Positions 5,614-18,267 of a stretch of 57,487 nucleotides of DNA are shown piece by piece. Location: assembly GCA_043771175.1 (NCBI GenBank), contig JAYVHO010000012.1, positions 1 to 57,487 of the forward strand, written 5' to 3'. The stretch comes from a bacterium (lineage in GTDB: Bacteria > Patescibacteriota > Minisyncoccia > Phycocordibacterales > UBA1006). The notes under the pieces are model-generated. The model worked only from the letters and a program-made list of their open reading frames with translations, searched no databases and had not been told where the DNA came from. Position 1 is the stretch's first letter, and each line of letters begins with the position of its first letter. Both the position numbers and the translations under genes were made by a program.

Positions 5614-6327
5614 ATGAAAAATTTTAGTGATTTCACTGAACAAGATTTAGAAAATCTTGTCGAGTCATGTGGTGGTCCTGAAAATGCATGGGCTCAAGTT
5701 CAAGAATTTTTAGCCAAAAAAGCAAACAACGCTACAAATCTACAAAAAGTAGATGAAAGTATTGAAGTCAAAAAGCAAAAAACAATCACATTCTGGAAAA
5801 CACAATTTAATACTGATATTCCAGAAACAGACATCATCCCACCTCAACCAGAGCATTTGTCCTATCTTAGTTGGTCACCAGAAAAATCTTTACGTAATTG
5901 TGATGAAGTATTACAAAAATACAAAGAACAATTCGGTGAAGATAATATATATTGTTACTATGATTCAATTGATGAGTCAATTCAGACACAACAAGACCGC
6001 ACAGAAGAAAGTTACTGGTACTGGCATAAGGGAGAGGAAGAACCAGATAAAAGACACCGAGGTAAATCGTACGATGTATTTTCAAAAGAAGAAACAAAGT
6101 ACATGATTCCTTTTGAAGGTATAGTGTTTGCCTATGAATATAGACTTAGCACAGGCAAAATGTTAGATATTGATGGTGTTACCTATTTTCACGCTCTGTA
6201 TTCTGGCGGCAACGTCATCCTCATGTGCGAGAACGATAGCGAATTCTACTTCGACTACAATTACCGCAATCGCAGTAATGACAAGTACGGACCCCGTGAG
6301 ATCAGTTTTAAAACTTTTCTCTTGTAA
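5614..6327 (+). CDS. DGR target protein with a C-terminal variable region (probable C-type lectin-like fold)
   Basis: The last ~45 codons contain a VR matching the downstream TR with adenine-specific differences. The fold is inferred from known DGR targets. Confidence 0.9.
   Translation: MKNFSDFTEQDLENLVESCGGPENAWAQVQEFLAKKANNATNLQKVDESIEVKKQKTITFWKTQFNTDIPETDIIPPQPEHLSYLSWSPEKSLRNCDEVLQKYKEQFGEDNIYCYYDSIDESIQTQQDRTEESYWYWHKGEEEPDKRHRGKSYDVFSKEETKYMIPFEGIVFAYEYRLSTGKMLDIDGVTYFHALYSGGNVILMCENDSEFYFDYNYRNRSNDKYGPREISFKTFLL
6193..6301 (+). repeat. DGR variable repeat (VR)
   Basis: 109-nt ungapped match to 6569-6677 with 16 mismatches; the last 28 nt are identical (IMH side). Confidence 0.97.
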
Positions 6328-6332
6328 CTTTT

Positions 6333-6365
6333 AACCCTTGCGCTTGTAAAAGTGTGAGGGTTTTT
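6333..6365 (+). promoter_or_regulatory. Hairpin 3' of VR (DGR target-recognition hairpin and/or terminator)
   Basis: aacccttgcgctt-gtaa-aagtgtgagggtt, a 13-bp stem with 3 G:T pairs and a GTAA loop, followed by a T run. Confidence 0.7.
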
Positions 6366-6568
6366 GTAATATATTAATATGGTTATTAAACTGGTTTGTG
6401 TATACAAATAGCAGTTTGCCACATTTTAAAAACTGCCTATGCTGACGTGCGTATAATAATGTATACGAAATAATGATAATGATCTTATCAAATGGATATA
6501 TAGCAGAGTATCCTCAACCCTTGGTTGCGACTGGGTGTGGTGAATAGATGTGTCAGTATAGAAACGGG

Positions 6569-6677
6569 GCTCTGAATTCTGACGACAACGTCATCAACAT
6601 GTACAAGAACAATGGCAAATTCAACATCAACTACAATAACCGCAATAACAGTAATGACAAGTACGGACCCCGTGAGA
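6569..6677 (+). ncRNA. DGR template repeat (TR)
   Basis: Non-coding copy of VR with 44 adenines and 12 AAY codons in the VR frame; 15 of 16 differences fall at TR adenines. Confidence 0.97.
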
Positions 6678-6683
6678 AGTTTT

Positions 6684-6706
6684 AACCCGCTATAGATGCG
6701 GGTTTT
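6684..6706 (+). terminator. Hairpin 3' of TR
   Basis: aacccgc-tatagat-gcgggtt followed by tt. It overlaps the avd stop codon on the other strand. Confidence 0.6.
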
Positions 6707-7068
6707 CTGCTACGGATTTATACCAACCATGTGCCATAATAGAAATTTTTTGGAGTTCCTGAATAATTTTTAAATAAAATTCTGAAGTAATAATATTAAG
6801 TTCATATTCTGTTCTTATTATATGTTTTGAAACTTCGATATTTCTACGAAGTGAAAGAATATATGGTAGTTTTTCTTTCTTATTAAGTAATCCTGCTTGA
6901 ATACTTTGCTCAAGTGTTTTTAAAATAGAGGTAAGTAGTTGGCTATGAATACCTAATTTGTCTTGCTTTGAAAGTTTACTGCTTGCTCTATAGGTATTTT
7001 TATATACACTTTCTATATGATGAACAATAGGAATTGCAAGGAAGTTTTCTCGGGGGGGTACTATTCAT
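6690..7068 (-). pseudogene. avd: DGR accessory variability determinant (Avd, four-helix bundle), frameshifted at the C7 tract
   Basis: Hand translation gives ...LAIPIVHHIESVYKNTYRASSKLSKQDKLGIHSQLL...LRRNIEVSKHIIRTEYELNII...ELQKISIMAHGWYKSVAENPHL*, matching the Avd E.G.M..GW-type C-terminus. The ATG at 7068 is one base out of frame (379 nt = 126 codons + 1). Confidence 0.85.
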
Positions 7069-8043
7069 AGTAATTTATTTAATAGTATAACATCGCTTGA
7101 AAATATATTAGATGCATGGAATAAATTCAAGATACAAAAACTTAAAAAATTTGGAGTGCAAGAATTTAGATATAATTTAGAAATAAATTTATTACAAATT
7201 CATAAAAAACTTATAAGTAAGAAATACATCCCAGACCCATATAAACCATTTTGTATTCAAGATCCTAAAAAACGCTTAATTCATAAAGCAGAAGTGTCTG
7301 ACAGGGTCGTGCATCAAGCAATCATTAATATTATTGAACCAATTTTTGATAAAAGTTTTATAAACGATTCTTTTTCTTGCAGAAAAGGTAAAGGAACACA
7401 CAAGGCTGTTAAAAGATTTAAATATTTTTTACAAAAAGTAAGTAAAAATAACACTCAGCAAACATGGATATTGAAGTGTGATGTTAAAAGATTTTTTGAT
7501 TCTATAAATCACGATATTTTAAAAGAACTTTTACATAAAAAAATTGAATGTTCTGAAACAATAAACCTTTTGAATATAATTATAGACAGTTTTGAAAAAT
7601 CAGAAAATACTGGATTACCACTTGGAAACTTAACAAGCCAATTTTTTGGAAATATATATTTACACGAATTAGATTTTTTTATTAAACATAGTTTGAAGGT
7701 AAAATATTATCTCAGATATTGTGATGATATGATTTTGGTAAGTAATAGTAAAATTGAACTTCAAAGTTGGCTTAAAACTATAACTGAATTTTTATACAAA
7801 AATTTGAAACTTGAAATCCATCCATCCAAGATATTTTTTAGAAAATATACCCAAGGAATGGATTTTTTAGGATATATAACATTTCCGAATTATACAATTT
7901 TAAGAAAAAGTACTAAACAAAGAATTATTAAAAAATGGTCTGGTTTGAATAATGATCAAAAAAATTCATATTACGGCGTTTTGAAATATTCAAAAAGTTT
8001 TAAAATAAAGAAAATTCTAAATAAAGAAGAAACAAATATATAA
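7017..8043 (+). CDS. DGR reverse transcriptase; 5' end frameshifted at G7 (track ORF 7156..8043 is the in-frame part)
   Basis: GLPLGNLTSQ (DGR-type SQ), YLRYCDD, RKGKGTH, and LKCDVKRFFDSI motifs. The RT frame stays open upstream to 7024 and encodes the conserved ITSLENILDAW segment, but has no ATG/GTG/TTG before 7156. Confidence 0.93.
7052..7058. repeat. G7/C7 homopolymer inside the overlapping 5' ends of RT (+) and avd (-)
   Basis: cgggggggta at 7051-7060. It is the longest G/C run I noticed in the window. Confidence 0.95.
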
Positions 8044-16779: not shown

Positions 16780-18267
16780 TTAAATCACAAGTGCCTCTTG
16801 TAATAAATCTTCTGGTGTTGGGGCAAGAGTAGGGTCTTCTGAAATTAAGTAAAGTTCAGAAGTTTTTAAAAACATGAGTGAAAGCATTTTCGCCATGGGG
16901 AGGGTGCCAGAAGAAAATACTAATCGATCATAATCAAATATATATAAAGCATCATACGTTTGAGCAGAAGATAAAAATGCTTTTAAGCTTCCCAGAATAA
17001 TTCCACCTGACAAAGAAACATCTTCAATTAATGTACTTACCTTCTTGGGTGATAGTTTATCTTCTGTTTCTTTAAATGCATCAAGTCTAAAAATTTTTAC
17101 CTGCTCGAAATATGCTAAAAGATATTCTTCTAATTGGCCAGTACCAAGACCCAGTTCAATAAGCGAAAGGGCACTACAGTATTGACATGCATCCCATGGT
17201 ATAAAAACTTTTTTTTCAGCGTGACACATATAGGTGATTTTTGAACCATTTTTATGTTTGTGAACTTTGGCATCACAACTGGAACATCTGGCTACTTTTT
17301 TACAGGTAGTACAAAATATTGCACTGCTGTAGCTGGTTTGAAGAGAAAATATGCCAATAGTTTTATGAGCTTTGATGTCTTTACTGAGCAGTCCTAAAAC
17401 TTTTTTTGGAATTACTGCGTGAGCTGTTGAAACGTATTCTGTTTTCTTATCTTCTTTTGAAGAAATTATATAGGTATCGTTTGATGATATACATATATCT
17501 GCTGTTAAACCATATACAACAACAGGTTGTGATGACGTTTGAAGCAGTAAATCTATGTGTGAAAACTTAAGATCATTATCATGATGAAAAATATTTTCAG
17601 GTTCAATAACACGAACAATACATAAATGTGTTGGAATAGATGGAATAAAACTTGATGTGGTCAGAATAATAAGACGCTGAGTGTTTTGATTATGTAAAAA
17701 TTCTTCATATGTTTTTTTATCATGAGCGTTTGAGCCTCCGTACATGTTTATAATTTCTATTTCATCATCATATAATGACAATAGTTTATGATGAAGCGTT
17801 AAAAGATATAACACAGAAGGACAAATAATTATCTGGCTTTGTTCGTATTCTTCAAGAATATCACCATGTAAAAGTGTTATATTTTTATATTCATGATCAT
17901 AACTTACAAATGGTGTTTCAACCCATAGAGAAATTTCTGACATGTGGCGTTCGATAATTTTTTTTGAAATAATTTGATGAAGAGGAATATTATATTTTTT
18001 TGATTCCGACATAAAAACATCAAGCGCTGCTGGTGAAATAATTCCATGTGGAGTTTGAAGAGGAATCGGCTTTAACTCAAAGTCACTGCTTTTAATAGAA
18101 AGCTTACGTTCTCTGATATGTGATGAGGAAAGTACCAAAAAAAATACATCGGCAGATCGTAGAGAAACGGTGATTATTGAGCCATTTTCAAACTGTTGCG
18201 TAGAGCGAAAAGAAAGCAGGGGATTTGGTAGATTTCTATATAAAACAATTCCTTCAACGATGTACAT
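16780..18267 (-). CDS. priA: Primosomal protein N' (degenerate helicase)
   Basis: 3'-DNA-binding N-terminus, Cys-rich zinc region, GLGTGQLEE and RLD motifs; Walker A is absent. Confidence 0.8.
   Translation of the reverse strand: MYIVEGIVLYRNLPNPLLSFRSTQQFENGSIITVSLRSADVFFLVLSSSHIRERKLSIKSSDFELKPIPLQTPHGIISPAALDVFMSESKKYNIPLHQIISKKIIERHMSEISLWVETPFVSYDHEYKNITLLHGDILEEYEQSQIIICPSVLYLLTLHHKLLSLYDDEIEIINMYGGSNAHDKKTYEEFLHNQNTQRLIILTTSSFIPSIPTHLCIVRVIEPENIFHHDNDLKFSHIDLLLQTSSQPVVVYGLTADICISSNDTYIISSKEDKKTEYVSTAHAVIPKKVLGLLSKDIKAHKTIGIFSLQTSYSSAIFCTTCKKVARCSSCDAKVHKHKNGSKITYMCHAEKKVFIPWDACQYCSALSLIELGLGTGQLEEYLLAYFEQVKIFRLDAFKETEDKLSPKKVSTLIEDVSLSGGIILGSLKAFLSSAQTYDALYIFDYDRLVFSSGTLPMAKMLSLMFLKTSELYLISEDPTLAPTPEDLLQEALVI

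Follow-up and report, generated by a model that had tools for sequence, protein, structure and literature searches.

The DGR in the window, by which we mean the whole 57,487-nt stretch of DNA analyzed here, raises a two-part question: whether the open frame lying on the minus strand between its template region (TR) and its RT encodes Avd, and, if so, why that gene lacks a start codon. The element is complete and is situated between dnaB and trpS, in a genome that is CPR-like in both size and composition (670 kb, 35% GC).

Components of the DGR and identity of the minus-strand frame

The plus strand carries a target gene of 237 aa (5614..6327), present in the ORF list, whose 3′ end, corresponding to the C-terminus of the protein, contains the variable region (VR; 6193..6301). 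A profile search found no Pfam domain in this target gene. The VR is 109 nt long and aligns without gaps to its repeat partner, the TR (6569..6677, plus strand), which includes 44 adenines. The two repeats differ at 16 of 109 nt, and 15 of these 16 mismatches fall at TR adenines, with A>G in eight cases, A>T in five and A>C in two. Downstream, the RT frame (7024..8043, plus strand) is open over 339 codons and matches RVT_1 with an E-value of 5.9e-27. Its translation contains LGNLTSQ and YCDD, instances of the LGxxxSQ and YxDD motifs that are diagnostic for DGR-type RTs, and its closest named homologs belong to Paceibacterota, Uhrbacteria and other Patescibacteria.

Several non-coding elements lie around these genes. 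The target gene is followed by a terminator-like hairpin (6333..6362, plus strand; −18.1 kcal/mol, z −5.6), which was the sole terminator-like site returned by a terminator scan. About 130 nt upstream of the TR there is an inverted repeat on the plus strand, GCAGTTT-N12-AAACTGC (6411..6436), which overlaps a promoter-like site, TTGCCA-16-TATGCT, at 6416–6443. This inverted repeat is kept in a related locus (L009) though the spacer around it has diverged; judged from these sequence features, it could be the promoter of the TR RNA or give the DGR RNA a structured 5′ element. Comparison of positions 6300–7200 with Rfam gave no credible match.

Between the TR and the RT, the minus strand is open from stop to stop over 124 codons (6690..7064). 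The frame ends in ...IQELQKISIMAHGWYKSVAENPHL and is closed by a TAG at 6692..6690, 13 nt from the TR; on its other side it adjoins the RT. The sequence-only reading had proposed that this frame is an unannotated avd gene, and its coordinates, C-terminal motif and stop position all proved correct. It had also ascribed the absence of the gene from the ORF list to the want of an in-frame start, and this explanation holds: the first ATG, GTG, TTG or CTG is codon 110 (6737..6735), preceded only by ATT, ATA and ATC codons, and because no start codon precedes codon 110 the gene does not appear in an ordinary ORF list.

The HMM comparison suggested with that proposal recovered both Avd profiles over their full length: NCBIfam NF033474 (Avd) with an E-value of 9.4e-8 (profile positions 2–104 of 104) and Pfam PF22296 (bAvd-like) with an E-value of 2.7e-6 (positions 3–107 of 107). 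The scores lie under the curated cut-offs of both families (32.3 versus 80 bits for NF033474; 28.3 versus 40 for PF22296), a curated cut-off being a threshold for naming rather than a structural feature. All 20 aligned relatives match NF033474, with scores forming a continuum from 34 to 88 bits, and one of these 20, from locus L031, passes the cut-off at 88.4 bits. The closest homolog, P0001 (121 aa; 64% identity, E-value 3.6e-40), was the one close match in a database of 5.8 billion proteins; its locus, L009, has the same DGR arrangement in a different genomic neighborhood. More broadly, among the 401 genomes of this class that we searched, 114 proved to contain Avd-like frames. The full-length profile match, the 64% identical homolog with the same neighbors and the 20 of 20 matching relatives together place the frame beyond chance.

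Structural comparison leads to the same assignment, in agreement with the four-helix bundle that had been anticipated. An AlphaFold2 model built from the Avd alignment (pLDDT 90.7) comprises helices at residues 12–30, 33–59, 62–88 and 94–119, and its predicted fold is the Avd bundle: the best Foldseek match, on which the model superposes, is 4DWL, the bAvd of Bordetella phage BPP-1 (TM 0.78/0.89, rmsd 1.7 Å). Foldseek also matched the model to the Avd chains in the DGR ribonucleoprotein 8UB7 and to two related four-helix proteins of the 23S-IVS kind, 2GSC and 2RLD. A sequence-profile search of the PDB with the Avd alignment gave no Avd match; it was the fold search that found 4DWL. The protein in the window thus resembles the bAvd of BPP-1 (4DWL, 8UB7) in being about 120 aa long, basic, folded as a four-helix bundle and encoded beside a DGR RT and TR, while being only about 14% identical to it in sequence. 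With Avd profiles, fold and DGR context in agreement, we take the gene to be avd, as firmly as sequence analysis can establish it. In BPP-1, Avd forms a pentamer that binds the RT and the DGR RNA and is needed for cDNA synthesis (PMC6182149). By analogy, the Avd of the window would assemble with the RT and the TR RNA in a complex yielding adenine-mutagenized cDNA; its predicted pI of 9.6 is consistent with pentamer formation and with binding of RT and RNA of this kind.

The order of elements in the window is target gene with VR, TR, hairpin, avd and RT, with avd alone on the reverse strand. [quoted passage not shown] 2018 (NAR 46:11, PMC5758913). The arrangement in the window corresponds to B3 exactly as it is described there, and the same passages make no mention of a 5′ overlap of avd and RT or of a repeat tract within it. 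The two genes are also head-to-head in all 50 related loci examined. The reverse orientation is therefore already known and typical for CPR DGRs, and it is unusual only relative to BPP-1. Taken together, the identity of avd and the B3 layout are close to certain.

As an observation apart, the related-locus search with the RT returned three loci from DPANN archaeal MAGs (L061–L063; Pacearchaeota and Woesearchaeota), and all three place the TR immediately before the RT and lack both a divergent avd and a tract. Two of these RTs (L061 and L062) are 46–48% identical to that of the window, as close as most CPR relatives, and the third (L063) is 38% identical. Such loci suggest that DGRs have passed between domains and changed their architecture in doing so.

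A homopolymer in the overlap of avd and RT

The divergent avd and RT genes overlap in their 5′ coding parts by about 52 bp (7017–7068), and this overlap contains GGGGGGG at 7052–7058 (C7 on the other strand), the sole G/C run of at least 7 nt in the 57-kb window. The RT shares the defect of avd: its first canonical in-frame start is a GTG at 7156, inside the conserved N-terminal region. Suitable start codons are nevertheless present on both sides, namely an ATG at 7068..7066 on the minus strand for avd and a tandem ATG ATG at 7017–7022 on the plus strand for RT, and each is one base out of register with its gene once the tract has been passed. With six or nine Gs, both genes gain their ATG; with seven, neither does, and with eight, not both. 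At G6 or G9, avd would read MNST(P)PRENFLAIPIVHH..., that is, MNST(P)PRENF..., and RT would read MMNNRNCKEVFSGG(G)TIHSNLFNSITSLENILDAW....

The L009 locus displays one of these lengths. Its tract is C9/G9, and both genes are in frame, as MSTPPRKNILDIPIIHH... and MMNDWNIENIFSGGGAHSIFY..., the RT reading MMNDWNIENIFSGGGAHS... in frame at G9; the ATG homologous to that of avd in the window starts the 121-aa Avd P0001 (MSTPPRKNIL...). The absence of a start codon from both avd and RT is explained by the G7 run, which puts both out of frame with their ATGs, and we hold with high confidence that this is the cause.

A second assembly of the organism (L064; Logan, SRR14689442) also has G7 and is otherwise identical to the window over 4.9 kb. 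The length is thus reproducible, and the two assemblies may share one sample. No tract length variant was seen in this organism, both assemblies having G7. The second assembly came from a look-up with the RT; look-up with DnaB and a metagenome pattern scan with the flanks of the tract gave no further assemblies.

Across the 670-kb genome, there are four G/C runs of at least 7 nt, against 9.5 expected under a first-order model. A G7 at this locus is on its own not improbable, and the case for a function rests on conservation. Two of the other three runs (G000:C6:67607-67613 and G000:C18:7305-7312) are intergenic, and each adjoins a GC-rich structured repeat of about 50 nt, GTCA..CCGC.AGCG..TGGA.CCCGC..GGCGGG.TGAC. 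There is also a G8 run, at G000:C7:17115-17122, toward the 5′ end of an open plus-strand frame of 305 codons (17006..17920), which from its sequence may be another contingency gene.

Two further features of the overlap were considered. Promoter-like hexamers face each other across it (TTGAAT-17-TATATT at 7130..7102 on the minus strand; 6897–6926 on the plus strand), but these are matches to consensus only, no denser than those in shuffled sequence, and deserve little weight. The stops just upstream of the two frames are TGA (7065–7067 on the minus strand; 7018–7023 on the plus strand), and recoding of TGA (tables 4 and 25) was therefore examined as a source of the missing starts. This was rejected, as the upstream extension of avd (7065..7199) is also without a start codon and the housekeeping genes in the window are normal under table 11.

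Tract length among relatives and its possible role

Comparison with related loci places the tract in a wider setting. Of 50 related loci, which represent many families of the class, 32 have a G/C run of 7–13 nt precisely where avd and RT meet. Nine nucleotides is the commonest length (16 loci), followed by 10 (seven), 11 (three), 7 and 13 (two each), and 8 and 12 (one each). In each 3-kb locus, the junction run is the sole run of at least 7 nt, except in L022, where the assembly is broken by Ns. Three of the 50 have (GT)n at the junction instead, and 15 have neither repeat. In these three (L036, L048 and L056), a (GT)10–13 repeat lies in the 5′ coding region of avd, upstream of the RT ATG. The occurrence of two kinds of slippery repeat at one position argues that it is mutability, and not a G-specific motif, that is under selection. 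The reading of the tract also differs between lineages: in the window's clade both avd and RT read through it, whereas the RT ATG of one sub-clade (exemplified by L033 and by the loci of P0091 and P0090) is 30–40 nt downstream, which makes the tract part of the RT leader and leaves avd as the one gene that it gates.

Length variation occurs within species. The L009 and L010 loci (both G9) and the L097 locus (G10), from different JGI samples, align over 2995 nt with no mismatches and a single 1-nt gap, which falls in the tract. At G10, a second register supplies the RT of L097 with an in-frame ATG (MIGISRIFFRGGGAHS...), and avd is left without one; across this species, two of the three tract phases keep RT on and one of the three keeps avd on. 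The P0091 set comprises 10 independent assemblies with an identical RT (NCBI, JGI, ENA and Logan), which are identical over 1381 nt except in the tract; six have G9 and four have G10, and avd is in frame with an ATG only at G10. A further 10 assemblies, which carry the RT P0090, have G9, G10 or G11, with most at G10, and full-length bAvd is called only in the two G11 assemblies, G11 being the in-frame length. In a tract-less relative taken as control (P0041, nine assemblies), the junction is constant in length, and one base substitution is the sole difference there. Within the P0091 assemblies, consensus VRs are identical between ON and OFF states, giving no link between tract state and diversification.

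We also compared 24 representative genomes, drawn among L009–L060, in which one length class gives both genes an ATG. Five are in that class, 16 are one G longer and three are one G shorter, a bias toward one G too many that could hint at recoding. In two other loci, L100 and L041, the tract is interrupted (GGGGTGGGGGG and GTGGGGTATTAACGGG, respectively), a new GTG or ATG for RT has arisen at the former tract site and avd is without an ATG; by sequence, these look like locked or decayed versions of a switch. Elsewhere, several contigs start only a few bases away from the tract, or Ns and aberrant C15/G11–13 runs are found there (L082–L084 and L022), as expected if tract heterogeneity breaks assemblies.

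The reading that we favor is that the tract is a slipped-strand contingency repeat. A single tract length would set the frame of both avd and RT, so that slippage would turn Avd, and in the window's clade the RT too, stochastically on and off, and the population sampled here, at G7, would be in the OFF state. That the tract works as an on/off switch is, on this comparative evidence, somewhat better supported than the contrary. The explanation taken as a whole—a chromosomal B3 DGR avd, disabled by a G7 frameshift and governed by a slipped-strand switch that is off in this population—we judge to be likely.

A different reading of the same start-less genes is that the DGR is dead, a fixed G7 frameshift having inactivated avd and RT and the tract having no regulatory role. 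Both genes do lack a start at G7, the two assemblies agree on that length with identical VRs, and most representative genomes are also out of frame. Against this, neither frame contains an internal stop over its 124 or 339 open codons, and in-frame and out-of-frame lengths coexist within species. A neutral G9–13 run should, moreover, decay fast at about 35% GC, yet such runs are kept in 32 of 50 diverged loci, with (GT)n in three. We consider this reading unlikely.

The 16 of 24 representatives lying exactly one G above the in-frame length speak for another possibility, in which out-of-frame lengths are expressed through RNA polymerase slippage or +1 ribosomal frameshifting on CCC-C or GGG-G and the tract tunes expression rather than switching it. 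Runs of Pro-Pro-Pro and Gly-Gly-Gly are known shift-prone contexts, which also counts in its favor. The species with many assemblies point the other way, as their out-of-frame alleles are one G short (ON at G10 and the others at G9 in P0091; ON at G11 and most at G10 in P0090), and no such frameshift mechanism is available to the (GT)n tracts found at this site; for these two reasons we rank recoding below a DNA-level switch that stands more often at OFF than at ON. G7 is in addition short for efficient transcriptional slippage. Recoding strikes us as a little less plausible again than a dead element.

An error of sequencing or assembly, with a true G6 or G9 and both genes intact, is improbable. 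Homopolymers are error-prone, and contigs of several relatives break at or near the tract (L082–L084 and L022), but the independent Logan assembly L064 (SRR14689442) has the same G7 and is identical over 4.9 kb. A consensus error would require more than half of the reads to be wrong, and a true G9 would require an error of 2 nt. Least credible of all is that avd starts at a non-canonical codon (ATA at 7064, or ATT at 7034 or 7028) with the tract irrelevant to its expression: table 11 does allow ATT, ATC and ATA, and such codons occur early in the frame, but relatives use an ATG upstream of the tract (P0001, MSTPPRKNIL; L066, MLPPPRESNN), no Shine-Dalgarno-like sequence precedes the ATA and ATT codons, and the same would have to hold independently for RT.

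Read as a contingency repeat, the tract resembles the poly-G/C loci of Campylobacter jejuni, Neisseria and Haemophilus, with which it shares a G/C homopolymer in the first codons, a length that differs among otherwise identical genomes and a frame that decides between ON and OFF. The modal length of nine at the DGR junctions is also that of the C. jejuni tracts in the passages considered of PMC3401435. Contingency loci gate genes for surface structures or restriction-modification, whereas here two enzymes of a hypermutation machine would be gated. Unlike those loci, a single DGR tract serves two divergent genes that overlap across it, one on each strand, and its hosts are uncultured CPR bacteria. 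A single repeat tract also lies between the divergent fimbrial genes hifA and hifB of Haemophilus influenzae and switches both together; there, a TA repeat changes promoter spacing. The DGR tract differs in lying within the coding sequence of both genes or, in the one sub-clade, in that of avd and the 5′ leader of RT. We found no publication describing a repeat tract at the avd/RT junction of DGRs in the full-text literature; Paul et al. 2017 lay outside this search and may mention it.

The hairpin 3′ of the TR and the biology of CPR DGRs

The gene for Avd converges on the TR, and its stop falls inside a hairpin directly 3′ of the TR, as the sequence-only reading had described. This hairpin, AACCCGC-N7-GCGGGTT (6684–6704; stems 6684–6690 and 6698–6704), occupies the junction of the TR and avd 3′ ends. 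It has a folding energy of −13.8 kcal/mol on the plus strand (z −2.9), folds on both strands and carries the avd stop codon at the border of stem and loop, with the minus-strand frame ending there beside the plus-strand TR. L009 keeps the structure, with the loop TATAGAY and compensating changes in the stem. Among related loci, a perfect hairpin of at least 6 bp is found at the junction of the TR and avd ends in 42 of 51, including 18 in which hairpin and avd stop overlap. From locus to locus the stems share no sequence relationship, and an A-run often precedes the hairpin and a T-run often follows it. We infer that the hairpin would serve as a shared bidirectional terminator keeping the TR RNA and the convergent avd mRNA apart; from its sequence and conservation, it probably ends both transcripts.

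Synonymous-codon identity at the 3′ end of avd, compared among four relatives, is 0.40–0.52 against 0.50 overall, giving no signal of an antisense RNA element, in what is a weak test. Identity rises (0.69) only where avd overlaps RT, as expected for dual coding.

A TR RNA of this form would contrast with that of BPP-1, where 20 nt of avd are required together with nearly the whole spacer 3′ of the TR (Sp, roughly 140 nt) and cDNA is primed from Sp A56 (PMC6182149). In the window, avd is on the strand opposite to the TR and RT, so that the RNA upstream of the TR is not avd sequence, and, in place of a non-coding spacer, the RNA 3′ of the TR consists of either a 21-nt hairpin or antisense avd. 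A TR RNA ending at the shared hairpin may leave no room for a spacer like that of BPP-1, and if the RNA does end there, cDNA priming would have to differ from BPP-1. The layout thus raises the question of how cDNA is primed with a hairpin or antisense avd 3′ of the TR and the BPP-1 spacer absent.

These observations can be joined in a broader proposal, to which we attach even weight for and against: a repeat in the avd/RT overlap would leave the DGR on in a random minority of cells and off in most, adding a layer of bet-hedging over targeted hypermutation, with the corollary that the TR RNA may end at the shared hairpin, lack a BPP-1-like spacer and be primed differently.

Neither the presence of avd nor its reverse orientation is out of the ordinary in a CPR DGR; the point of interest is the repeat tract behind the missing start. 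If the tract is a switch, DGR activity would be phase-variable in a very large group of uncultured bacteria, and the broken appearance of many CPR DGR genes in assemblies would be accounted for. Annotation by automated pipelines would in that case miss avd too often and shorten RT, and tract length would be a simple marker for predicting the natural populations that are actively diversifying their target protein.
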